Virus record (IMG/VR): IMGVR_UViG_3300036876_000145
Location: 19,489 to 83,488 of that record
Reading direction: 5' to 3' (one strand)
Length of the DNA stretch: 64,000 nt
DNA from: a virus
Lineage: Duplodnaviria > Heunggongvirae > Uroviricota > Caudoviricetes
This document shows, in pieces, positions 29-50,742 of the stretch; position 1 is the stretch's first letter; every line of letters starts with the position of its first letter. The position numbers were made by a program, and so were the translations under genes. The notes below the pieces were generated by a model that was not told the DNA's origin, made no database searches, and saw only the letters and a list, made by a program, of their open reading frames with translations.

Positions 29-874
29 ATGAGCAAATCTAAAGCCGATTCCCTGGGTGATCGGATGAAACGGCATGAAAATGTGTACCGTTTTCTTCTG
101 CCGAAGCGTACTTACACCATTCTTCGCGTTGGCAGAGCTTTCCATACATGGACTAAAGGACTGGCAAAGCCCTACGACAAGCAATTTATGGACTGCATGA
201 ATGCCGCAGCAAGGGCACTTTGTGAGCAAATCAGCGGGGCTCAATTCGCCTACATTCAATCCGATGAAATCAGTTTATTGGCTGTGGATTTTCTCGATAT
301 CAAAACTGAGCCCTGGTTTGATGGTGTGATACAGAAATGGGTGAGCGTGGGGGCTTCCATCGCTACAACGGCATTTAACCTTCAAGTCGGCTACTACCAG
401 AAGCTGGCGCTCCGCGACTCCTTCGGAGAAGGCTGGCTGGTAACGTCTGCCCGTGATACATCTTTGCTTGGCGGTAAAAAACTCATGAACGCTATGTTTG
501 ACGCTAGGGTATTCACGATTCCTGATCTGGTTGAAGTCGAAAATTACTATGTTTGGCGACAACAGGACGCTGAACGAAATAGCGTAACCATGCTGGCACA
601 AGCATACGCCAGTCACAAACAACTTCACGGAAAAAATCGTGCAGCGCAACACGAAATTATTCAAGCCGCAGGCGACAATTGGGCAAAGCACCCAGCTTCT
701 TTTAAGCACGGACGCATAATTCGGAAAATTGACTCAGTAACCATCGGAAATACCAACTGGGTAATTGACGAAAATACGCCGGTGTTTACTCGAAATCGGA
801 ATTATTTGAGAGATTTAATTCCATATGCTTGGGAAAATGATATACTGGTGAGAAAGGCGGCAACGAGTGAGTAA
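29..874 (+). CDS. Thg1-like protein (tRNA-His guanylyltransferase / tRNA 5'-end repair family)
   Basis: 281-aa ORF. AYIQSDEISLLAV resembles the Thg1 catalytic QSDEYSFVF motif. Size fits Thg1-like proteins. tRNA-rich context. Confidence 0.65.
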   Translation: MSKSKADSLGDRMKRHENVYRFLLPKRTYTILRVGRAFHTWTKGLAKPYDKQFMDCMNAAARALCEQISGAQFAYIQSDEISLLAVDFLDIKTEPWFDGVIQKWVSVGASIATTAFNLQVGYYQKLALRDSFGEGWLVTSARDTSLLGGKKLMNAMFDARVFTIPDLVEVENYYVWRQQDAERNSVTMLAQAYASHKQLHGKNRAAQHEIIQAAGDNWAKHPASFKHGRIIRKIDSVTIGNTNWVIDENTPVFTRNRNYLRDLIPYAWENDILVRKAATSE

Positions 875-6886: not shown

Positions 6887-7372
6887 ATGGAAGAGTTTAA
6901 AAAAACAGGTGAGGAACGTGTATTTAAGGGCGGTGCGAGTAGAGACGCAGCGATAGGGAAAGGGGCACCACACTGGATGCCTTCTATTGCTCTTTTCCTT
7001 GTTTCTCGCATTTACGAGAACGGTAACATCCAAAGGGATAAACTCAACGGCGGCATCGGCAATGGGGATACTCGTAATTGGGAAAATGGAATGCCAATTA
7101 ATGAGTTGCTTGGTTCCGCCGAACGCCACATTCAGCGTTATCGAGAAGGAGATCGCAATGAACCCCACCTCCCCCAAGCCGCTTGGAATATTCTTAACGC
7201 CATAATGATGTCTGTTTGGATTTGGCTTGGTTACAGAGATGTTAGTTTCAATAATCTTCCCGATCACATCCACAATTGGAAACCTGGAGATCCTTCACCC
7301 TGCCCCTTAAGTCCCCAAGAAATAGAATGGTTGAAAGTACGTGGAATAGAAAAAAATAACACAACTCAGTAA
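6887..7372 (+). CDS. hypothetical protein
   Basis: 161-aa ORF. Confidence 0.45.
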   Translation: MEEFKKTGEERVFKGGASRDAAIGKGAPHWMPSIALFLVSRIYENGNIQRDKLNGGIGNGDTRNWENGMPINELLGSAERHIQRYREGDRNEPHLPQAAWNILNAIMMSVWIWLGYRDVSFNNLPDHIHNWKPGDPSPCPLSPQEIEWLKVRGIEKNNTTQ

Positions 7373-10040: not shown

Positions 10041-10811
10041 ATGAGTAGTTTACTCGAAATAGCTATTGAGCTGGCGCTGAAAGCACACCATGGGCAAATA
10101 GACTCGGATGGTGACCCTCACATTCTTCACAGCTTAGAGGTCATGTTTGCTGTAAAAAAAGAACTGGAATGTGCCCCCAATGAAACTCCAGATTGTTGCC
10201 TTCCCGTTTTATATGGAGCTACAAAAGAGCAACTTTTAGTAGCGGCTGTACTTCACGATGTGGTTGAAGACACTGATTTTTCTCTTGATCAGGTTCGTAA
10301 AGAATTCGGAGATGTGGTTGCAGATATCGTAGATTCCGTTACCCGACGTGAATCCGATGGAATAAAAGAATTTTATCGTGATTTTATTTATCGAGCCCGC
10401 GCGTCGAAAGGCGGAAGACTAGTTAAAATCGCAGACCTCCTCACAAATCTTAAACGCCTTCCAAATATTAAAATCGCTCACCCAAAATGGCATGACAAAC
10501 TTCAATATAAATATCACTTAGCAAAACGGGTGTTGCAGACTGAAGATGATGCTGCTTACAAGGTGGGTCAGTATACGCAGTTCGGAGGCTACGTGGTGCA
10601 GACTGAAGATGATGCTGCTTACAAGGTGGGCCAGCAGTTCGGAGGCTACGAAAAAGTGCGGCAGGTAAAGCTTTGGGAGAAGCTTTCTGGGGAGATTAGG
10701 GGTTATGACCCAAAGCAGTATTTTATTGCTGATCCCGATGGTAAACGCAAAGAAATTTCATCTGCTGAGTTTACATTCTTATTTCCTACCAAGCTACCCG
10801 AACCGAACTAG
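10041..10811 (+). CDS. small alarmone hydrolase, SpoT/Mesh1-type HD-domain (p)ppGpp hydrolase
   Basis: ALKAHHGQ...DPHILHSLEV, LHDVVEDT (HD motif) and KIADLLTNL match the RelA/SpoT hydrolase domain. Contains the internal tandem repeat VLQTEDDAAYKVGQ x2. Confidence 0.8.
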   Translation: MSSLLEIAIELALKAHHGQIDSDGDPHILHSLEVMFAVKKELECAPNETPDCCLPVLYGATKEQLLVAAVLHDVVEDTDFSLDQVRKEFGDVVADIVDSVTRRESDGIKEFYRDFIYRARASKGGRLVKIADLLTNLKRLPNIKIAHPKWHDKLQYKYHLAKRVLQTEDDAAYKVGQYTQFGGYVVQTEDDAAYKVGQQFGGYEKVRQVKLWEKLSGEIRGYDPKQYFIADPDGKRKEISSAEFTFLFPTKLPEPN

Positions 10812-13225: not shown

Positions 13226-15322
13226 ATGGGTCTTCAAGAATACACCACAGCGCTAAACGCGAAACTAGAAAAAGCACGGGACGCTTATTACAAGAAGGGC
13301 GAACCCGTGATGTCCGATGCTGAATATGACGCTCAGGAAAAAGAGTTGGCGGATATAATATCGGCTAATCCTCAATTGAAGGTGTTCGCCCCTGTACTCC
13401 ATACAGTGGGTTCCGATGTAACGGCCTCTGGAAGAGTGAAGCACAGCCGTCCCATGCTCAGCATTGAGAACAAATACACTGTTGATGACTTTGTGGAATG
13501 GGCTAAGAAAATATGGGCAGGATATCCCGACGCCAAATTCTGCTTAGAGCCAAAATTTGATGGTGTGAGCGTAGAATTAAGGTATAGGCATGGAAAATTG
13601 CATCAAGCCGTTTCCCGCGGTACGGGCAGTGAAGGAGAAGATTGCACTTTACAGGTAATGGCGATCAAATCCATTCCAAAAACAGTACCTAATAGTTTTC
13701 CAAATGTGTTTGACATTCGGGGAGAAATGGTCATGCGGAATGACACCCTTGAACGTCTCAACGCTGAGGCCCAAAAATATGGGGGTAAAATTTATCAGTC
13801 CACCCGTAATCTAACAGCGGGTACCATGAAAAAGCAAGACGCTAAAATTGTAGCTAGTCGTGACCTTGAATATAGACCTTGGGAAGTGACAGGTTCAGAT
13901 TTAAATGATAGTGGGTTTGCCCGCTTGGATATGCTTGTTGATGCGGGGTTTGTCGCTCCCTTGGGAGAACTGGTAGAAGATGAAGCTTCACTACGAGCTG
14001 TTTTAGCGAAGAAACTTAAGGAGCGCACAACTAAACTTCGTGATATTCTTTCCTTGGAAACTGATGGCGTAGTCATTAAAGTAGATTCGAATGCTTTACG
14101 CACACAGTTAGGAGTTGCTTCTAAATATACCAACTGGCAAACCTGCTTCAAACCCCAATCTGCCTCTGGTACTACGTATCTACGCAGCATCGAATGGCAG
14201 GTAGGACGAACAGGAAAATTGTCTCCTGTTGCGGAATGTGACCCCGTGATACTGGCTTCCGCGAAGGTCGAACACGCCAGTCTTAACAACATCTCCTGGA
14301 TTAAAGAAAAAGGTTTGAAACTGGGGGCAAAGGTAGAAATGCTGCGATCCGGGGATGTGATCCCTCAAATCGTTCGTGTGATTGACGAAGGGGATGATGA
14401 AATCATTCCACCAACAAAATGTCCGGAATGCGCTGGAAAAGTTGTGGAGATGGATGAGGGCGGAGTAGGCATCATTCAACATTTTTGTACCAATCAAGCA
14501 TGCCCCGGTATTCTACGGGGGTATTTGGCTTTTATTGGTAGTAGGGATGTACTAGAAATCGATGGGTTGGGTCCAGAAGCAGCAAGAACACTAGTGAAAG
14601 AGGAAGGGATCCATGATCTGGCTGGGCTTTTTAATTTTTATAATAGATGCCAAGATAAAAGACTCTCCATGGATACAAATAAAGAATTTATCGCCTATGC
14701 TCGAATGATAGGATTTGATGCCACTCTTCCCAAAATGTTGGATTCCTTAGAGAAGGCTAAAACCGCTCCTTGGGAGCGTTGGATCAAAGCTTTGGGGATT
14801 CCTATGATTGGGGAAACTCATGGTAAAGCTTTGGTGACATTTTTTAAGCTCACCCCAGAGAGCTTCAAAGATTTATGGCAAATTACCCAAAACTTGGAAG
14901 AGAACAAAATTGAGGGTATAGGGCCGCAGAAAATAAAAGCTTTATCTGAATGGGGGGCGAACCCTGACAACAAAGTTTTGTGTTTGTCATTATTCAATTT
15001 AGGTGTGCGTCCTACTCCTCCGGAAACGCCTAAAATAGTAGCTGGGGCACCTCTAAGTGGTATTATTTTCTGCATTACAGGGGAGTTTGACGAAGATAGA
15101 AACTCTCTTATCAAGAAACTTGTTAGCTTAGGGGCCGAATCTAAAACTGGTGTAACCAAAAAAATAAATCTTTTGATCGTTGGTGATGACGCGGGAAAAA
15201 CTAAGTTGACTAAAGCCGCAGAATTAGGTATAAAACAAGTAGGGAAAGATTGGCTCGTTAAAACTTTGTCCGATAGCGGCATTAAAATGTCGCAAAATAA
15301 CTTTGTTCCAGAGCAGGCGTAA
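13226..15322 (+). CDS. ligA: NAD-dependent DNA ligase
   Basis: Ia domain YYKKGEPVMSDAEYD, adenylation KxDG (EPKFDGVSVEL), OB domain, Cys4 zinc finger CPECAGKV...CTNQACPG, HhH region, C-terminal BRCT. Confidence 0.9.
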   Translation: MGLQEYTTALNAKLEKARDAYYKKGEPVMSDAEYDAQEKELADIISANPQLKVFAPVLHTVGSDVTASGRVKHSRPMLSIENKYTVDDFVEWAKKIWAGYPDAKFCLEPKFDGVSVELRYRHGKLHQAVSRGTGSEGEDCTLQVMAIKSIPKTVPNSFPNVFDIRGEMVMRNDTLERLNAEAQKYGGKIYQSTRNLTAGTMKKQDAKIVASRDLEYRPWEVTGSDLNDSGFARLDMLVDAGFVAPLGELVEDEASLRAVLAKKLKERTTKLRDILSLETDGVVIKVDSNALRTQLGVASKYTNWQTCFKPQSASGTTYLRSIEWQVGRTGKLSPVAECDPVILASAKVEHASLNNISWIKEKGLKLGAKVEMLRSGDVIPQIVRVIDEGDDEIIPPTKCPECAGKVVEMDEGGVGIIQHFCTNQACPGILRGYLAFIGSRDVLEIDGLGPEAARTLVKEEGIHDLAGLFNFYNRCQDKRLSMDTNKEFIAYARMIGFDATLPKMLDSLEKAKTAPWERWIKALGIPMIGETHGKALVTFFKLTPESFKDLWQITQNLEENKIEGIGPQKIKALSEWGANPDNKVLCLSLFNLGVRPTPPETPKIVAGAPLSGIIFCITGEFDEDRNSLIKKLVSLGAESKTGVTKKINLLIVGDDAGKTKLTKAAELGIKQVGKDWLVKTLSDSGIKMSQNNFVPEQA

Positions 15323-17906: not shown

Positions 17907-17955
17907 AATTTAATTTGTTAAATGTTTGCATCTTAATTTACGAGGAGAAAAATTT

Positions 17956-19857
17956 ATGGCTGGACATGTTACCCCACAAGCGAAGGTTCTTTTGGTTATT
18001 GTTGGAGTTGTAGGACTCTGTTTCTTAGGTAAGACAGCGATGGAACGGGGCTGGATGCCAACTCCCAACATCATGAAGGCGATTGTCCCATCCCACATTT
18101 CACTTCCAGAAGTGAAAGATGCACAGGTTGCGAATGTTGTACCGGCACCCCTACCACAAAGCACACCGGCAACCGTTTCTAATACGCCTATCATCGGAGA
18201 AGTTTGGGAATGGAATGCTATGTTAGGTCATCTATTGGCAAACGGCGGTAAACATACAACCGCTGGTTCCCTGATGGCAAAGCGTAATGTTAATCTGACA
18301 CTTAAGAGGCAAGATCTCACCGATCAAATGCAATTGGATTTGATCGCTTGTGCCAGCCAGCTAGCGGGGGGGTCTACGGATTGTTCCACCGGAGCGAACT
18401 ATGTTATTATCATGGGCGACGGTGCGGGGCAATTTGCAGCTGCTACCAATCCAAAGCTTTATGACTTGGACTGCAAGGGAAAGCCAAAGGGCTGCGTTTC
18501 GAAGTATACGCTCAAGGTTATCGCCGCAACTGGATATAGCCGCGGAGAAGATGCCTTTTTGGCCCCTCCGAATGTAAAGAAAGATTCCAAGTCTTTCAAT
18601 CAATCCCCTATGCCTGGGTCGCAAGATTCCAAGGGTCAGGAAATTACTGGCCTATTGGTTGAAGGCGTTCTTCGTGATGGTGATTGGAACATCGCCTTAA
18701 AGTGGGCTGGTGATAACGCCATCCCCAATAACCCGGACGAAAAGACTTTCGATCCAGATGCAGTTAACTGGATCAATGCTCCGGATTACAACACCGCCGC
18801 TACAGATTATGTCGCCGGTAAGTGCGAAGATCGTAAACTCGTGCATGCGGGGCGTCCTACAGGGGATATGGTGCATGTCTGTGTAAACTCCCTTGTGACT
18901 TGGACACCCGGAGATGTTGTAGCCGTGACGAAGAAGGGCGGCGTAGTGAAGGTTGTTTCTTCCAAACAAAATCGCAGTCAGATGCCCGCTGTGATTATTG
19001 GTCCGGCAAAGTTTTTCCAAGACAATCGGGAAGAAATCACTAACATGCTCGCTGCTACTTTCGAAGGTGGCGACCAAGTGAAGGCGTTTGACTTGGCTCT
19101 GCACAAGGCGGCAGCTATTTCATCCGATGTTTATGACGATAAGGGTGATGCTCCAAACGAAAACGGAGACTACTGGTACCGTTATTACAAGGGTGTTCCG
19201 TACAAGGATCCCACCACGGGGCAGATAGTCGAACTAGGCGGTTCGTCTGTGAACAACTTGGATGATAACCTTATCTTGTTTGGTATGAAGGATAAGGGGA
19301 ATGACAACTTCCGCTCAACTTATACGCTCTTTGCGAACATTGATGTACAGCAATACCCAACTTTGTTCAAAGAGACTCCAATTCCTGATGTGAAGCTTGT
19401 GGAAGATAAGTCTTTCATCCAGGGAGCGAAGGATATACTCAGCGGGGATAACAACACCGGCTCCGAAGCAGCGGAACCAGCGTATGAACAGCAAGCTACG
19501 GGAAGTGTCATTGGTCAGCGTGCCTATGATATCAACTTCAAGACGAATGAAGCGAAACTTACCGAGGCTGGTGAGGCACAGTTGAAGCAATTGAAGGATG
19601 GCTGGGCAATCACCGGAGCGTTTATTCAGGTCGATGGCTATACAGACAGCACAGGCAATGAAGATCACAACCTTGAACTATCAAAGGGACGTGCGGCCGC
19701 TGTGGTTACATACCTGCACACAAACTGGCCGACAAACTTCCCGGCAAAGCGTTTCAAAGCCACGGGTCACGGTTCTCAAGACCCCGTAGCTTCTAACGCT
19801 ACAGCCGAAGGGAAGGCTCAAAATCGTAGGGTTACGATTACCCTGCTAGGCAAGTAA
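17956..19857 (+). CDS. OmpA-family protein (N-terminal TM anchor, C-terminal OmpA/MotB peptidoglycan-binding domain)
   Basis: Start set at MAGHV, which has an aggag Shine-Dalgarno. C-terminus ...GYTDSTGNEDHNLELSKGRAAAVVTYL is an OmpA C-like domain. Confidence 0.75.
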   Translation: MAGHVTPQAKVLLVIVGVVGLCFLGKTAMERGWMPTPNIMKAIVPSHISLPEVKDAQVANVVPAPLPQSTPATVSNTPIIGEVWEWNAMLGHLLANGGKHTTAGSLMAKRNVNLTLKRQDLTDQMQLDLIACASQLAGGSTDCSTGANYVIIMGDGAGQFAAATNPKLYDLDCKGKPKGCVSKYTLKVIAATGYSRGEDAFLAPPNVKKDSKSFNQSPMPGSQDSKGQEITGLLVEGVLRDGDWNIALKWAGDNAIPNNPDEKTFDPDAVNWINAPDYNTAATDYVAGKCEDRKLVHAGRPTGDMVHVCVNSLVTWTPGDVVAVTKKGGVVKVVSSKQNRSQMPAVIIGPAKFFQDNREEITNMLAATFEGGDQVKAFDLALHKAAAISSDVYDDKGDAPNENGDYWYRYYKGVPYKDPTTGQIVELGGSSVNNLDDNLILFGMKDKGNDNFRSTYTLFANIDVQQYPTLFKETPIPDVKLVEDKSFIQGAKDILSGDNNTGSEAAEPAYEQQATGSVIGQRAYDINFKTNEAKLTEAGEAQLKQLKDGWAITGAFIQVDGYTDSTGNEDHNLELSKGRAAAVVTYLHTNWPTNFPAKRFKATGHGSQDPVASNATAEGKAQNRRVTITLLGK

Positions 19858-21380: not shown

Positions 21381-21690
21381 GGTTGTTCTCAAAGAAGATG
21401 GAATCAAAATTTGGATAAGTCCCAAAGATCATCCGCAGGTTCATCTATGGGATGATCTTAACAGATATGGCTACTATGTTTATCGGGGCATCTCTCTTGG
21501 TGATAACCCAACAATAGAGATAAGGACTGAACTAGTAAAGGAGATTTTGATTCAATACAAAACAGTTCGCGGACAAAGAACAAGCTGGACTGTTGACGAC
21601 GCATGGCTTAAGAAATGGAAAGCAAGAAATGGAAAGGAAATAGATCCTCCGGTTCCTGTTAAGCCGGATGTAAAAGGAAAAAATAAATGA
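21352..21690 (+). CDS. hypothetical protein
   Basis: ORF 21292-21690 trimmed to MTIKTYKNGK, which has an aggag Shine-Dalgarno. Confidence 0.4.
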   Translation: MTIKTYKNGKVVLKEDGIKIWISPKDHPQVHLWDDLNRYGYYVYRGISLGDNPTIEIRTELVKEILIQYKTVRGQRTSWTVDDAWLKKWKARNGKEIDPPVPVKPDVKGKNK

Positions 21691-22553
21691 GCGCACTTTA
21701 TCCATACAGTTACGGTGATACTCTCCTAAAGATTGATCATGTGTACCTAAGCGCGTCCGCGGATGGGAATTCCCTGCTAACGAAGCCTATGCCTGGAAGC
21801 CGCGCTATTTTGACGGATGTCTGTGCAGAAATCAAGAAGATCAAACGCCCTAATCAAATTCAAGGGCAGATGGTAGGGTTATTGGGGCCTTCCGGACGGG
21901 GAAAAACACAGCTATTTCGTATTATTTCAGGTCTTAATAAACCCACATCCGGACAAGTTTTGATAAACGGGAAAGCGGTTCCCGTGGTCGCCGGAGAGGT
22001 AGGAGTAGTAGCACAAGATTATCCGTTGTTTGCGCATCGCACAGTTATGGGTAATTTAACGTTGGCGGCAGAGAAAAAAGAAAAAGATGCAAAAACCGCT
22101 CATGAAAAAATCATGACCTTTCTTAATGAATTCGGCATTGCAGATAAAATAAATTTGTACCCTGCTCAATTATCAGGGGGGCAAAAACAAAGAGTAGCAA
22201 TAATCCAGCAAATTTTATCATCATCATATTTCTTACTTATGGACGAACCTTTTTCAGGTCTCGATATTATCATGGAAGATAAGATGTTACAACTGATCAT
22301 GAAGATAGCCAATATGGATGATTTAAACTGTGTGATAGTTGTAACCCACGATGTAACAGCAGCGGCATCAGTGTGTGACCATATTTGGGCTTTGGGGTGG
22401 ACCCCAGGTGGGGATAAATCTTCTAGCATAGTAAAGACATATGATTTGATTGAACGGGGATTGTGCTGGGAACAATGGCAAAATATGGCGGCATTGCGCC
22501 CCGCTTTGACAGATTTTATTAAAGAGGTAAAAAACGATTTCTACACACTGTGA
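21687..22553 (+). CDS. ABC transporter ATP-binding protein
   Basis: Walker A GPSGRGKTQ, ABC signature LSGGQKQRVAI, Walker B LLMDEP, H-loop VVTHD. Confidence 0.8.
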   Translation: MSALYPYSYGDTLLKIDHVYLSASADGNSLLTKPMPGSRAILTDVCAEIKKIKRPNQIQGQMVGLLGPSGRGKTQLFRIISGLNKPTSGQVLINGKAVPVVAGEVGVVAQDYPLFAHRTVMGNLTLAAEKKEKDAKTAHEKIMTFLNEFGIADKINLYPAQLSGGQKQRVAIIQQILSSSYFLLMDEPFSGLDIIMEDKMLQLIMKIANMDDLNCVIVVTHDVTAAASVCDHIWALGWTPGGDKSSSIVKTYDLIERGLCWEQWQNMAALRPALTDFIKEVKNDFYTL

Positions 22554-27218: not shown

Positions 27219-27230
27219 AAATTTGGATGT

Positions 27231-27325
27231 GGTGGGCAGCACTGGTGTGCGGCTGAGCCTTATAAACTCGGGAAAGCTCCAGATTAGAGCGACGGCGTGG
27301 GTTCAACTCCCCGGCCCACTACCAA
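27231..27325 (+). tRNA. tRNA-like gene with a non-canonical anticodon loop (9-nt loop containing TTATAAA)
   Basis: Acceptor ggtgggc/gcccact plus ACCA. Imperfect T-arm gtgggttcaactcccc. Anticodon stem ctgag/ctcgg encloses ccttataaa. Confidence 0.3.
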
Positions 27326-37860: not shown

Positions 37861-37952
37861 ACTTTGAGCGAGTTACGTGGAAGGCAACTTTGTTCATGGA
37901 GGGCAACGACCAAAGCGACTCGCTCAATAAGTTTTGAAGTTTGAAGTCATGA

Positions 37953-38030
37953 TACACGTAGCTCAATTGGTAGAGCAGCGCCATTAACGGCGCTGATGTG
38001 GGTTCGATCCCCACCGTGAGGAAGGCTTCT
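37953..38030 (+). tRNA. tRNA-like gene with a non-canonical anticodon loop (attaac) and a poorly paired acceptor end
   Basis: D-arm tagctcaattggtagagc, anticodon hairpin gcgcc-attaac-ggcgc, T-arm gtgggttcgatccccac. Only about 4 acceptor base pairs. Confidence 0.3.
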
Positions 38031-40065: not shown

Positions 40066-40142
40066 ATCCTCGTACCGGCCTCGTTTCCTAAACGAGTAAC
40101 CGTAAAGGAGCAATGTGGGTTCGAGTCCCACCGAGGATACCA
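40066..40142 (+). tRNA. tRNA-Arg (CCT)-like with a reduced D-arm and enlarged variable region
   Basis: Perfect acceptor atcctcg/cgaggat plus A and CCA; T-arm gtgggttcgagtcccac; anticodon hairpin ctcgt-ttCCTaa-acgag. Only 7 nt between acceptor and anticodon stem. 18-nt variable region. Confidence 0.45.
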
Positions 40143-41461: not shown

Positions 41462-42778
41462 ATGATGAAAAAAGAAATGACCCTTTTGGGTCTAGTCGCC
41501 GCTACGTATTTTATGGTAAGCGGAGGCCCGTACGGTCTAGAAGACCTAATTGCTCAAACTGGTTACGGATGGGGAATACTCATTCTTTGCTTAGTGCCCT
41601 TCCTGTGGGCACTGCCAACCGCTATGATGGTTGGTGAACTCGCCTCTGCGATACCGAATCGCGGGGGTTTTTATATTTGGGTGCAACGTGCCCTTGGAAA
41701 ATTTTGGGGATTCCAGGAAGCTTGGCTTTCATTAGCGGCTTCCATATTTGATATGGGAATCTACCCGCTACTTTTTATTTCTTACCTGGGTGTATTGGCT
41801 CCAAGTTTCACCGCAGGGTGGCACGGCTCGCTTATAGCAACGGCTCTAATCGCTGTTTGCGTATTGTGGAACCTTCGGGGTGCCAAAGCTGTAGGAAACG
41901 GCTCTGTGGCGTTAGGAGCCCTTATGGTGAGCCCTTTTGTGATTATCACCCTAGCAGCTCTCCGACACGCCCATCTGACCCATGTTACGGGTCATCCTCA
42001 CGCCGTCAGTCTTATGGGCGGTATTATGGTCGCTATGTGGAACTTCATGGGTTGGGATAACGCCAGCACCATAGCCACAGAAGTCAAAAAACCTCAACGA
42101 ACCTACCCCATCGCCATGATGGTGACTATGCTGTTGATTGTTGGAAGCTATATTCTCCCCGTAGCAGCGTCTTGGTATCTGGGAGTACCCCTGTCTGCCT
42201 GGTCAACAGGGAGTTGGGCGACTATTGGTGAAATCATCGCGGGTTCTTGGGTACGAGACGCCATTGTACTGGGTGGAATGATCAGTGCAGCGGGGATGTT
42301 GAACTCCCTCATGATGAGCTATTCTCGTATTCCCCCAGCGCTGGCTGAAGATCATTATCTGCCTCGCATATTCACAAAAATAAATGCAGTGTCAGTTCCC
42401 ATGATAGCTTTATTTGCCTTGGCGACAGTTTGGGCAACAGCGTTCGGTTTGAATTTTGACCGTCTGGTGATGCTGGATATTTTACTTTATGGAACGAGTC
42501 TTATTCTGGAGTTTATCGCTTTAGTGGTATTGCGTTGGAAAGAACCAGATTTGCCTCGACCTTTTCGTGTGCCTGGGGGAAAATTGGGCGCTATCTTGGT
42601 AGGAGTTTGCCCAACGATACTTCTCTTCGCGGCCGGTATTTTTGGGGATCATAACGGACTATTGCTAGGCTTAGGCATGATTCTATCCGGGGTGGGTGCT
42701 TGGTGTGGAATTCATGGATTTCGTGCCGCTAAATATGAAAAAATCGCTCCCACTTTCTCAACTACCACGATCCCCTAA
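41462..42778 (+). CDS. APC-superfamily amino acid/polyamine permease
   Basis: 12-TM pattern; N-terminal GGPYGLEDLI...GELASAIPNRGGFYIWVQRALG typical of amino acid permeases. Confidence 0.85.
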   Translation: MMKKEMTLLGLVAATYFMVSGGPYGLEDLIAQTGYGWGILILCLVPFLWALPTAMMVGELASAIPNRGGFYIWVQRALGKFWGFQEAWLSLAASIFDMGIYPLLFISYLGVLAPSFTAGWHGSLIATALIAVCVLWNLRGAKAVGNGSVALGALMVSPFVIITLAALRHAHLTHVTGHPHAVSLMGGIMVAMWNFMGWDNASTIATEVKKPQRTYPIAMMVTMLLIVGSYILPVAASWYLGVPLSAWSTGSWATIGEIIAGSWVRDAIVLGGMISAAGMLNSLMMSYSRIPPALAEDHYLPRIFTKINAVSVPMIALFALATVWATAFGLNFDRLVMLDILLYGTSLILEFIALVVLRWKEPDLPRPFRVPGGKLGAILVGVCPTILLFAAGIFGDHNGLLLGLGMILSGVGAWCGIHGFRAAKYEKIAPTFSTTTIP

Positions 42779-44037: not shown

Positions 44038-44543
44038 ACTATCAAAATAAACTTCAAAAAATACAAAAAGAGTTTGTGCTGGGAATAAAAGATAAATTCA
44101 CCTGTATGACTAAATTTGAGCAAGTTTTATGGGAATACGGTCTTCTACCAAAACAAGAAGAGTTAGATAGGGAAATGTCTAATGAACATTTTTCTCGCTT
44201 GATACAAATGGCTATGGAACATACAGATACTCATTCAGATCGAGATCCTGAAAATAGTGAAGAATTGGATAATGAATACGCAGCGGCTTTTTATTCTGTA
44301 AGAGTTTGCCCAATTTGTCATATTACGCAATCCCGTCCATTAGTTGGTAGCGTGAGTGATTTAGCTCGAAAAATAACTGCATTAAACCCTCCTCGTTGTG
44401 AACGCTGCGCCATTGATTGGATGAAAAAACATCTAGAGAATTCCCCAAAAGGTGAAAATGTAGATTTGATAAAACCACTTAGCAAAGAAGAGAAAAAATT
44501 TTTTGATGAGTATGAGAAGGAAATGGAAGACTTTGAGGTTTAG
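44034..44543 (+). CDS. hypothetical zinc-binding protein
   Basis: 169 aa; CPICH...CERCA. Confidence 0.45.
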   Translation: MNYQNKLQKIQKEFVLGIKDKFTCMTKFEQVLWEYGLLPKQEELDREMSNEHFSRLIQMAMEHTDTHSDRDPENSEELDNEYAAAFYSVRVCPICHITQSRPLVGSVSDLARKITALNPPRCERCAIDWMKKHLENSPKGENVDLIKPLSKEEKKFFDEYEKEMEDFEV

Positions 44544-45232
44544 TGGTATTATTATGGTATATGAATATGAACGGCTCGACGAGCGCAATCCCGCCGCTTT
44601 GCGGTGGGTTAGCGAGTGCCTTGGTTCTCGACGTCGCAGTTATGGCGGACCCACAGAATGGTACCGTTCAACATCTCGGATTCAACCCAGCGGCAACCAA
44701 GTACAACTGGAGACGCAGGAGAGCCAACCTCAAGAGTGCAGGCAAGCGTCGTACACTGCGCCAACTGAGCCGTAAGCAATCACGACGTACAACACATGAG
44801 AATCACATCGTGTCTAAGCAAATAGTTTCCTATGCCGTAAAGCATCACCGCGCAATTGCCGTAGAAAACCTTGAGACAGTTCGTAAGCCGAACAGCAAGA
44901 TTCGGAAGTACGTCGAGAAGTCTCAATGGTCTTTCTATCAGTTGTTGTCGTTCCTCAAGTACAAAGCGGCTTTGCACGGCGTTATCATCGCGGAAGTCAA
45001 TCCTGCATACACCTCGCAGAATTGCTCTCGCTGTGGACAGCGGAACACTCCAAACGGCAAGAAGTACGTTTGCGAGCATTGCGGACACACCGACCATAGA
45101 GATGCTAACGCGGCATTCAACATCGCCAAGCGCGGTATTGAGTTCCTATCTATGGGCGGCACTCACGACTCAGAGCGCGTGAGCGGGGCTGTATTGGTGA
45201 CGCCCTATTCTGGAGGACCAGCATATGCTTAG
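44543..45232 (+). pseudogene. IS200/IS605-family TnpB (OrfB) remnant: C-terminal RuvC-II/III plus zinc finger only
   Basis: IAVENLE (RuvC-II), CSRCGQ...CEHCGHTDHRDANAAFNIAKRG (zinc finger plus RuvC-III). The N-terminal ~170 aa and the RuvC-I GIDLG Asp are absent (HLGFNP). GC-rich. Confidence 0.55.
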
Positions 45233-45305
45233 CATAATGTCACGGTTCGAAAGAATCCCAGAGTTCTACTCTGGGAGCATCAAATCGAATTTTAAGGAGA
45301 TAATT

Positions 45306-46028
45306 ATGATCAGCCCACTTCCGGAAATGCTTGAAACTTTAGGGAAAATGCTAGCACCTGGGATGACAGGAAAATTTCTTGACAGCTTTGCCGCCAATCT
45401 CTGCAAACTTCACGATGTAAAGCCAGCTTTCTTGGGGTATAAACCCCCCAATTTTAGCGGCAAAGAAGGGTTCCCCAATACAATTTGTGTCTCCATAAAT
45501 GATGAAGTAATTCATGGTATCCCATCGGATAGGAAATTTGAGGAAGGAGATGTTATAAAACTTGATATGGGAATCGAGAAAGACGGGGAGTTTGACGATG
45601 GAGCGATTACCGTACTTTGTGGTACAGTAGATGATGAAGGGCGCATACAAGGGTGCTCTGCGACCGCTAGGAAGCTTGTAGCAGCGACTAAGGAAGCTCT
45701 TGCCGCTGGGGTGCAGCAAGCCAAGGCAGGGAACACAACCCACGATATCGCCAAGGCTGTGGAGACGGTAGCTAAAAATCATGATCTTCATGTAGTTCAT
45801 GGTTATGGAGGACACGGTATTGGAAATCAACTACACATGGAACCTCATATCCCGAATGAAGAAGATGGGTCAATCGCAAAAAAATTGGAGTCCGGAACCA
45901 GGGTAGCGATCGAACCCATGCTGGCTACAAATCATGGATTTACTTATGTAGCAGCTGATGGTTGGACGGTAAAGCTTCGTAACGGAGGACTGGCCGCTCA
46001 TTTTGAGCAGACGGTAGAGATAAAATAA
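45306..46028 (+). CDS. map: methionine aminopeptidase, type I
   Basis: FLGYK...FP, metal ligands in GDVIKLDMG / DDGAITV / HGYGGHGIGNQLHMEP / IEPM; start set at MISPL after aaggag. Confidence 0.85.
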   Translation: MISPLPEMLETLGKMLAPGMTGKFLDSFAANLCKLHDVKPAFLGYKPPNFSGKEGFPNTICVSINDEVIHGIPSDRKFEEGDVIKLDMGIEKDGEFDDGAITVLCGTVDDEGRIQGCSATARKLVAATKEALAAGVQQAKAGNTTHDIAKAVETVAKNHDLHVVHGYGGHGIGNQLHMEPHIPNEEDGSIAKKLESGTRVAIEPMLATNHGFTYVAADGWTVKLRNGGLAAHFEQTVEIK

Positions 46029-49802: not shown

Positions 49803-49835
49803 AGTGTTTCCGATGTATACTAGGGATGGAGGCGA
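49803..49835 (+). promoter_or_regulatory. TGTATACTAGGG-type promoter-like element (copy A of a 40-bp duplicated block)
   Basis: atccattttcagtgtttccgatgtatactaggga is identical to 51907-51939. Extended -10-like TGTATACT sits about 10 nt before the ATG. Confidence 0.4.
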
Positions 49836-49836
49836 T

Positions 49837-50742
49837 ATGACAAAGAAAAGTAGCTCTGATGTGGCGGCTGATTTGAAAAGTGCAATGGGTTCCGCTGCCG
49901 ATGCAAAGACTATTCTCGATACACCAGATAAGAAAACCGCCAGCCGTTCCACATGGAAGGGTTATATTTCCGCTTTTGGCGTTATGCTGATTCCCGCCGC
50001 AACCCTGAAAGCCACTGATGTTGATGCTATCGAAACCCACATGTACCATAGCGCTGCTTGTCCGAATCGTTTGGTGCAGAAATACACCTGCTCTTGCTGC
50101 GACACCGAAGTCCCCAACGCTCGTACAAACGCCCTTAAGGGTGTAGAAGTGGGGGACAAAGTCATTACTCTCACTCAAGCGGAATTAGACGCTCAGAAGC
50201 CCACTAGTGACAAAATTCTCAAAGTCACCGAGTTTGTTCCCGCTGATGCGATTGATGTTACCTACTACGAATCCAGCGAATACATCGCCGCTGATAAGGG
50301 TGGGGAAAAAGCCTTCGCCACATTCCAGCAAGCCTTGGCGCAAACGGGGCGTATCGCTATCGGCACCTTCGTAAGCCGCGGTCACCAATACACTGTTGCA
50401 CTTCGCCCCAAGGGTCAGTATGGTATCGTCATGTCTTATTTGTTCGCGGAATATGAAGTTCGCAACTGCGGCAAGTGGACGCCTGTTGTTGTCAATCCGG
50501 CAGAAGTTGATTTGGTCAAGCAGCTTATGACTGAAACCGAACTGGCAAAAGAAGTATTCACCCCCGCCGCCTATGACCCCTATCTCTCTGGCGTGCGCAA
50601 GATGATTGCTGCTAAGGCAAATGGTACGGAAGTTTGCACCCCGGCTGCGGACGAAGTTCCCAAGGCTACGGATGATTTGTTGGCGGCGTTGAAAGCTACC
50701 CTGGAGCAGCAAAAGGCAAAGGCTGCAAAGGCTGGTGTATAA
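49837..50742 (+). CDS. ku: Ku protein (non-homologous end-joining DNA end-binding)
   Basis: WKGYISAFGVMLIPAATL, YYESSEYIAADKGGEKAFATFQQALAQTGRIAIGTFVSRGHQYTVALRP, YLFAEYEVR match bacterial Ku (WSGAISFGLVNVPVKLY, YYLAPDKGGEKAYALLREAL...AIARFV...LAALRP, YADEVR). A Cys-rich insert HMYHSAACPNRLVQKYTCSCCD. Confidence 0.85.
   Translation: MTKKSSSDVAADLKSAMGSAADAKTILDTPDKKTASRSTWKGYISAFGVMLIPAATLKATDVDAIETHMYHSAACPNRLVQKYTCSCCDTEVPNARTNALKGVEVGDKVITLTQAELDAQKPTSDKILKVTEFVPADAIDVTYYESSEYIAADKGGEKAFATFQQALAQTGRIAIGTFVSRGHQYTVALRPKGQYGIVMSYLFAEYEVRNCGKWTPVVVNPAEVDLVKQLMTETELAKEVFTPAAYDPYLSGVRKMIAAKANGTEVCTPAADEVPKATDDLLAALKATLEQQKAKAAKAGV

Follow-up and report, generated by a model that had tools for sequence, protein, structure and literature searches.

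The first open reading frame (ORF) of the stretch of DNA analysed here, 64,000 nucleotides of the IMG/VR virus record IMGVR_UViG_3300036876_000145 (hereafter the window), encodes a Thg1-like protein (TLP) from which one of the catalytic aspartates has been removed by an in-frame deletion of a single codon. The gene is read as a young loss-of-function allele and not as a working repair enzyme, a reading with a probability of roughly one half. The protein itself has most probably lost all or nearly all of its catalytic activity.

The window is a phage-like array of genes, all on one strand. Its first ORF is a true Thg1/TLP orthologue of the bacterial type, and a preliminary description of the sequence was correct in recognising it as a Thg1/TLP gene with an SDE motif. 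The protein matches Pfam PF04446 over profile positions 2-130 of 130 with 82.7 bits (cut-off 29.2; E 2.8e-23) and PHROG 4717 'tRNA-His guanylyltransferase' with E 1.1e-70; no NCBIfam model was found for it. The best match among solved structures is the TLP of Bacillus thuringiensis (BtTLP, PDB 4KGK/4KGM), both by sequence (4kgk, E 9.9e-47 and about 37% identity in the HMMER alignment) and by fold (Foldseek E about 1e-20), and the archaeal TLP and eukaryotic Thg1 structures are far weaker matches in sequence. An AlphaFold2 model, made with 44 homologues, obtained a predicted local distance difference test (pLDDT) score of 82.8 and a predicted template modelling (pTM) score of 0.82. The model has the palm-plus-fingers fold of the solved Thg1/TLP structures, and the top 32 PDB hits obtained for it with Foldseek are all Thg1/TLP, the best being 4kgm_B (E 9.3e-21), with 4kgk also among them.

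The S78-D79-E80 motif aligns with 'QSDEIS' in BtTLP and is invariant across the family. Residues E17, R33, H39, K47, S78, D79, E80, R160 and N172 are all intact; six of these positions (E17, R33, H39, R160, K47 and S78) are invariant, or K/R, in the family. K47 and S78 correspond to K44 and S75 of yeast Thg1 (ScThg1), and all six have counterparts in BtTLP or ScThg1 with a demonstrated role in activation or nucleotidyl transfer. The segment 'QQDAERNS' aligns with 'QQDASKNS' in BtTLP and with 'QVDCHINN' in C. albicans. A segment of the HINNLYN type is specific to the Thg1 of eukaryotes; the window protein carries the TLP-type 'NYYVWRQQDAERNS' at the place occupied by 'NYFSWRQVDCHINN' in C. albicans Thg1. 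The mapping of residues to E12, R28, H35 and R131 of BtTLP was made with the HMMER alignment and PMC3701042.

In the HMMER alignment 'ILRV-GRAFHTW' of the window protein stands opposite 'VRIDGAHFHTY' of BtTLP. The closest relative, a 2.9-kb Logan contig (L011, encoding protein P0002), keeps the aspartate in GTT-GAT-GGC, and the DNA alignment to it shows an in-frame deletion of three nucleotides, flanked by TG microhomology, by which GTTGATGGC has become GTTGGC. The residue deleted is D30 of BtTLP, equivalent to D29 of human THG1 (hTHG1). As TYTILRVGRAFHTWTKG contains neither D nor E, realignment cannot rescue the missing aspartate. The column is D in 119/119 close homologues (the top database hits), where it reads R-[VI]-D-G, and also in all 144 distant homologues that cover the region, out of a set of 150 representatives at 50% identity. 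Taken together, 263/263 of the other metagenomic and genomic homologues aligned have D at this position, the 162 isolate-phage records mentioned below lying outside this count, and a gap is found in the window protein alone.

The carboxylate triad of the family (D29, D76 and E77 in hTHG1; D30, D75 and E76 in BtTLP) is present in the window protein as D79 and E80 only. The Thg1 profile search that the preliminary description had proposed as a check thus gave a significant match, but the alignment to the catalytic carboxylates, proposed along with it, found one of the three absent, and absence of these carboxylates is what that description had named as grounds for refutation. In BtTLP, D30 and D75 coordinate the two catalytic Mg2+ ions and the D75A protein is nearly inactive (PMC3701042). 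Alanine substitution of the metal-binding carboxylates abolishes the steps of the reaction, and the equivalent aspartate is invariant in all palm-domain polymerases cited (PMC6471195). With the first metal-binding aspartate deleted, activity as a repair polymerase is unlikely for the window copy. In its intact form the enzyme would restore nucleotides lost from tRNA 5' ends, among them G-1 of a tRNA-His with C73, with the 3' acceptor strand as template. The deletion has excised the aspartate that shares with D75/D76 the binding of the two Mg2+ ions on which 5' activation, nucleotidyl transfer and removal of pyrophosphate depend, and it is from the need of both ions for this residue that we infer the probable loss of catalysis. 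A second, intact copy of the TLP gene was not found in the window with tblastn.

The missing codon is not an artefact of sequencing or assembly. The exact aspartate-less protein of 281 amino acids (P0001) was found in 37 contigs, or 101 index blocks, of the assembly collection and its W41R derivative (P0121) in 21 contigs, or 46 index blocks. The aspartate-less allele overall is represented in about 150 index blocks from many independent assemblies (JGI, ENA and Logan), made with different assemblers. The source metagenome series includes the JGI samples Ga0182012/Ga0182031, Ga0311345 and Ga0395694 and the ERZ2725xxxx assemblies, and SRR12736056 is the source for the sister allele of L011. An identical gene of 846 nucleotides was present in 10/10 fetched contigs, which come from separate samples of JGI and ENA and were built with different assemblers, nine further fetched loci (9/9) lacked the aspartate and carried W41R, and the JGI metagenome contigs that match the junction were aspartate-less in four cases of four; a search of IMG/VR for the deletion junction gave no match. 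It is in consequence very improbable that the gene encodes a normal, active TLP which repairs 5'-damaged tRNAs of phage or host and in which the missing aspartate is an artefact. Such an enzyme would agree with the family, the fold and the other motifs, and with the presence of an RlaP nucleotidyltransferase and 21 tRNA genes in the same window, but it is contradicted by the independent assemblies just listed, and an in-frame loss of three nucleotides is not a typical Illumina assembly error.

Three sequences were not used as evidence. The long-read sequence L030 (P0184, 'RVAGRAFH') was considered as an independent loss of the aspartate or as an intermediate that contains it, and was found to be uninterpretable, with some 32 mismatches and 20 indels per 1.3 kb, fragmented genes and GCC (Ala) at the deletion site. 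L022 and L024 were considered as frameshifted decay alleles; their scattered deletions of one nucleotide extend beyond the gene, which marks them as low-quality assemblies.

The tRNA genes of the window show no sign of needing 5' editing. ARAGORN identified 21 of them, and the acceptor stem is paired 7/7 in 20 of the 21, with CCA encoded in most. In tRNA-His, the encoded G-1 (36110) stands opposite C73 (36187) and gives an acceptor helix of 8 bp of the bacterial type, in which RNase P retains G-1; the Rfam tRNA-Sec model, which has an acceptor stem of 8 bp, aligns over 36110-36187. The preliminary description had reported this G-1 opposite C73, and the pair is real and encoded, with the start of the gene one nucleotide off (G-1 is at 36110, not at 36109). 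It had also rightly regarded a role in G-1 addition as unnecessary, since G-1 is encoded and pairs with C73. Its statement that several tRNA-like genes have poorly paired acceptor ends was not borne out. The gene at 37952-38022 is the sole one with a mismatched acceptor end: it has mismatches at 1:72 and 3:70, an anticodon loop of six nucleotides (AUUAAC) and no CCA. Its D-arm is identical to that of the neighbouring tRNA-Lys genes, and it is probably a decayed tRNA-Lys paralogue. The other gene that had been named, at 27229-27322 (+), has an acceptor stem paired 7/7 once its ends are correctly set, with G.U at 1:72, and an encoded CCA. The pattern of tRNA 5' editing, multiple genes mismatched at 1:72 to 3:70, was not found in the window. 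TLPs rebuild mismatched acceptor 5' ends in mitochondrial tRNA 5'-editing, as in Dictyostelium (DdiTLP3) and Acanthamoeba, and this is the mechanism to which the idea of the preliminary description corresponds; in those systems many tRNA genes are mismatched in the first three acceptor pairs, whereas 20/21 are perfectly paired here.

Some further features of the tRNA genes were observed. The gene at 27229-27322 (+) has a long variable arm and an aberrant anticodon loop, of nine nucleotides or of seven (CUUAUAA) closed by C.A; it is a weak hit of the tRNA-Sec model (27.4 bits) and was missed by ARAGORN. A tRNA call of 36.6 bits at 40066-40139 (+) was likewise made by Rfam and not reported by ARAGORN. 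A tRNA-Lys(CTT) gene is found at 1817-1894, about 1 kb downstream of the TLP gene, and some contigs of the population have two tRNA-Lys(CTT) genes in that interval (L002 4789-4866 and 5317-5392); tRNA copy number therefore varies within the population.

The preliminary description had proposed that the TLP may repair or mature tRNAs of the element or its host. The family and the logic of that proposal are right, but this copy is without the catalytic aspartate and the supposed substrates are essentially missing. Phage Thg1-like enzymes are taken to belong to a tRNA-repair toolkit directed against host nucleases, and we know of none that has been characterised. Restoration of tRNA 5' ends by the Thg1 of jumbo phages is an already published hypothesis, Thg1 being listed by Iyer et al. 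(2021) among the jumbo-phage RNA-repair enzymes that restore 5' nucleotides (PMC7824862). A companion toolkit was looked for among about 60 window ORFs scanned, where RlaP alone was found; an RNA ligase, Pnkp or a CCA-adding enzyme was not found among these ORFs. The RlaP-family RNA-repair Pol-beta nucleotidyltransferase is encoded at 33432-34265 (+), with a Pfam match of E 2.4e-18 and a match to PHROG 388 of E 4.7e-46, and its gene lies 1.7 kb upstream of the tRNA-Trp/His cluster.

Rao et al. showed for TLPs of bacteria and archaea that encode G-1 that these enzymes repair tRNAs truncated at the 5' end (PMC3061083). BtTLP prefers the templated repair of such tRNAs, and its organism resembles the phage in that G-1 of tRNA-His is encoded and a TLP is present all the same (PMC3061083). 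BtTLP and the window protein belong to the same length class and share the motifs E12, R28, H35, SDE, FDxR and NYxxWRQQDA. They differ in that BtTLP is a cellular protein with D30, whereas the window TLP is phage-encoded, lacks the equivalent of D30 and has an extra loop of 15 amino acids. The eukaryotic Thg1 proteins (yeast, human and C. albicans; PDB 3OTB, 3WBZ and 5XOX) have the same palm-domain fold and the same positions of the carboxylate triad, with weak sequence similarity to the window protein (E 2e-9 to 1e-4). Their non-templated addition of G-1 opposite A73 is unneeded in the phage, which has C73 and an encoded G-1. Phage homologues of the same family (PHROG 4717) are found in Xanthomonas phage XacN1, Bacillus phage G and Bcp1-like Bacillus phages. 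In total 162 phage records have a TLP homologue, with 36-41% identity, annotated as tRNA-His guanylyltransferase. In contrast to these isolate-phage homologues, none of which exceeds 41% identity, the homologues nearest to the window protein, with 60-67%, are encoded by metagenomic contigs of 450-465 kb from uncultured sources.

Read as a young loss-of-function allele, the aspartate-less gene would have swept an almost clonal phage population. The phage would tolerate the loss because G-1 is genome-encoded and the tRNA acceptor stems are intact, and the recent date of the lesion would explain why the ORF is still open, with a possible contribution from translational coupling of its 3' end to the gene that overlaps it downstream. 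The near-clonality is seen in the three flanking genes, which are free of single-nucleotide polymorphisms (SNPs) across 19 loci, although orf144 has an indel in one locus. In the same 19 loci two SNPs were found in the TLP gene, and both are non-synonymous: W41R, found in 9/19, and G70V, found in one. A third change, N172T, was found in a fragmentary sequence from the aspartate-less population. All three protein polymorphisms are at conserved positions. The W41 position is W, F, Y or L, and never R, in all 263 homologues with a residue there, while the G70 position is 91% G and the N172 position 98% N in the family. Over about 5 kb no allele but W41R has an intermediate frequency, the neighbouring genes each having one dominant allele. 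Between the window TLP and that of L011 there are seven amino acid differences, and five of the seven are derived on the window branch; H212Q is such a derived change, at a site with H in 108/119 close relatives. The pattern of polymorphism and derived changes fits, on thin evidence, a relaxation of constraint after the deletion.

Several observations weigh against a loss-of-function allele. The pairwise ratio of non-synonymous to synonymous substitution rates (dN/dS) between the TLP genes of the window and L011 is 0.089 (dS 0.14), which indicates that most of the divergence has accumulated under purifying selection; this value fits a very recent deletion, but equally a protein that is still useful. 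An excess of protein variants in the TLP over its neighbours was looked for and rejected: rare protein variants per residue are not above those of the neighbouring genes, and the frequency of W41R alone stands out. A McDonald-Kreitman-like comparison (three non-synonymous and no synonymous polymorphisms against about 8:21 fixed differences) gives a Fisher p of 0.03, a value that is biased because the variants were ascertained via protein look-ups. The ORF has its full length, none of the reliable assemblies shows a frameshift or stop in it, and every other functional residue checked is intact. Finally, a codon deleted at random would be that of one of the three carboxylates in only about 1% of cases (3/281), and so low a chance is a hint of selection for a folded protein free of catalysis and not of plain decay.

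A natural non-catalytic or rewired TLP, that is a pseudoenzyme which binds tRNA 5' ends or a polymerase that uses an acidic carboxylate of its loop, is to be considered as a less probable, tentative explanation. The pseudoenzyme taken by itself is somewhat more doubtful. The aspartate-less TLP would be kept for the binding of tRNA 5' or acceptor ends, or of nucleotides, without catalysis; it might shield the 5' ends of phage or host tRNAs, draw off a host nuclease or sensor as a decoy, or enter the tetramers of a host TLP and poison them. Shield and decoy may be directed at host acceptor-end nucleases or sensors, and the loss of activity may also help the phage to evade a defence that detects active TLP. 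That the lesion is one codon at exactly the catalytic aspartate, with the low chance given above, agrees with this, as do the preserved fold, the preservation of all other residues in contact with the nucleoside triphosphate and the tRNA, the dN/dS of 0.089 against the sister gene and an ORF intact in about 150 index blocks. The last of these is, however, weak proof, the population being nearly clonal. The radical change W41R lies beside the nucleotide-binding Thr and has a frequency of about one third, and together with G70V and N172T it is more in keeping with relaxed constraint than with the upkeep of a binding site. The literature examined gave no precedent for a TLP without catalysis.

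The lineage of the window also has an in-frame insertion of 45 nucleotides in the TLP gene. The segment is missing from L011/P0002 and from P0004, P0005, P0019, P0022, P0027 and P0030, all of which share an uninterrupted 'YYxSARDT', and since these include distant relatives the segment is therefore an insertion in the window lineage. No further copy was found in the window, where it is unique, and a repeated mobile element was ruled out. The insertion carries the acidic residues D130 and E134 and sits just before the triphosphate-binding FDAR strand (R160, equivalent to R131 of BtTLP). An active 3'-5' polymerase with a rewired site, in which the inserted 15 amino acids (KLALRDSFGEGWLVT; D130, E134) or a contact through water or the backbone would replace the aspartate, is unlikely. 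The loss of the aspartate and the gain of an acidic loop near the R160 strand do co-occur in the lineage, and the noisy L030 has the insertion together with three extra bases at the deletion site, so that the insertion perhaps came first; L030 is, however, riddled with indel errors and has an Ala codon there, not an Asp codon. The equivalent aspartate is moreover invariant in the 263 homologues and in all palm-domain polymerases cited. The pLDDT is low at residues 137-142 and below 50 to 60 in the inserted loop, which is predicted to be disordered, and the region is hypervariable with no conserved acidic residue in relatives.

A routine annotation as 'tRNA-His guanylyltransferase' can thus hide a copy without an essential catalytic residue. 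The aspartate-less window allele and the aspartate-containing P0002/L011 form a natural matched pair that differs by the Asp codon, the loop of 15 amino acids and seven substitutions. This pair could show whether a megaphage needs catalysis by its TLP, or whether a TLP that only binds has a role. If the allele is only a dying gene, the lesson is to check the carboxylate triad before a function is assigned.

Table 1. Coordinates of the TLP gene, its sites and the associated features in the window
Feature	Coordinates	Strand	Remarks
Thg1-like protein (TLP) ORF	29..874	+	ATG to TAA, 281 amino acids; bacterial/BtTLP type
Deletion junction	128..133	+	V34 (GTT) and G35 (GGC) codons adjoin; Asp codon gone at 130/131
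W41 codon (TGG)	149..151	+	T149A (W41R) in about one third of the aspartate-less population
S78-D79-E80 motif	260..268	+	Intact; second and third family carboxylates and the Ser of the activation step
In-frame insertion of 45 nucleotides (KLALRDSFGEGWLVT)	400..444	+	Hypervariable loop preceding the FDAR strand; from alignment to relatives
Downstream ORF, 107 amino acids	867..1190	+	GTG start; overlap of 8 nucleotides with the TLP stop; conserved partner in related megaphages
tRNA-His(GTG)	36110..36190	+	Body 36111-36190, G-1 36110, C73 36187, encoded CCA
Degenerate tRNA-like gene	37952..38022	+	ARAGORN structure; Rfam tRNA 44.5 bits

The downstream ORF that overlaps the TLP gene has no Pfam match. 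The overlapping arrangement is also found in L011, L025, L027 and L029, and the TLP gene together with an overlapping ORF of about 110 amino acids is syntenic in the metagenomic contigs of 450-465 kb, with 60-67% protein identity. In these relatives the pair lies within a block for nucleotide metabolism and replication, with genes for dCMP deaminase, ThyX, MazG, UPF0114, a MazZ-like diphosphohydrolase, an HD protein, an AAA ATPase and a DNA ligase. No tRNA genes were found within 10 kb on either side of the TLP gene in L025, L027 and L029, and megablast gave no match to a close isolate phage. The TLP is a conserved core gene of a clade of environmental megaphages of about 450 kb, and the lineage of the window, for which the longest contig measures 178 kb, carries a damaged copy of it.

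The comparison with L011 changes in character at the 3' end of the TLP gene. Whereas dS is 0.14 for the TLP gene and 0.18 upstream of it, the region 867-1628 begins with a jump to 0.78 in the ORF that overlaps the TLP gene, and the next ORF (1194-1628) has a dN/dS of 0.91. These values suggest that a breakpoint of recombination, or the edge of a mosaic segment, lies at the 3' end of the TLP gene.

A MazZ-like protein with a dATP/dGTP diphosphohydrolase N-domain and an HD-domain protein are encoded in the window at 6887-7372 (+) and 10041-10811 (+), respectively. Both are conserved near the TLP gene in L025, L027 and L029, with dCMP deaminase, ThyX and MazG. The set suggests editing of the deoxynucleoside triphosphate pool or modified DNA, and the clustered basecall errors of L030 could fit base modification.

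An ORF of 826 amino acids resembling the major vault protein is found at 30675-33155 (+), with matches to MVP_shoulder (E 3.6e-26) and Vault_3 (E 1.8e-8). Other genes of cellular type are those for an amino-acid permease (41462-42778), an ABC ATPase (21687-22553), an OmpA-domain protein (17926-19857), a Met aminopeptidase of the M24 type (45225-46028), Ku (49804-50742) and a NAD-dependent DNA ligase, LigA (13226-15322); a SNF2 helicase is also encoded in the window. Genes for MazG and a full-length TnpB (OrfB_IS605/Cas12f-like) that lie upstream of the TLP gene are present in some and missing from others of the otherwise identical contigs of the population (L001-L019), and a truncated TnpB with the TNB domain only is found in the window at 44543-45232.

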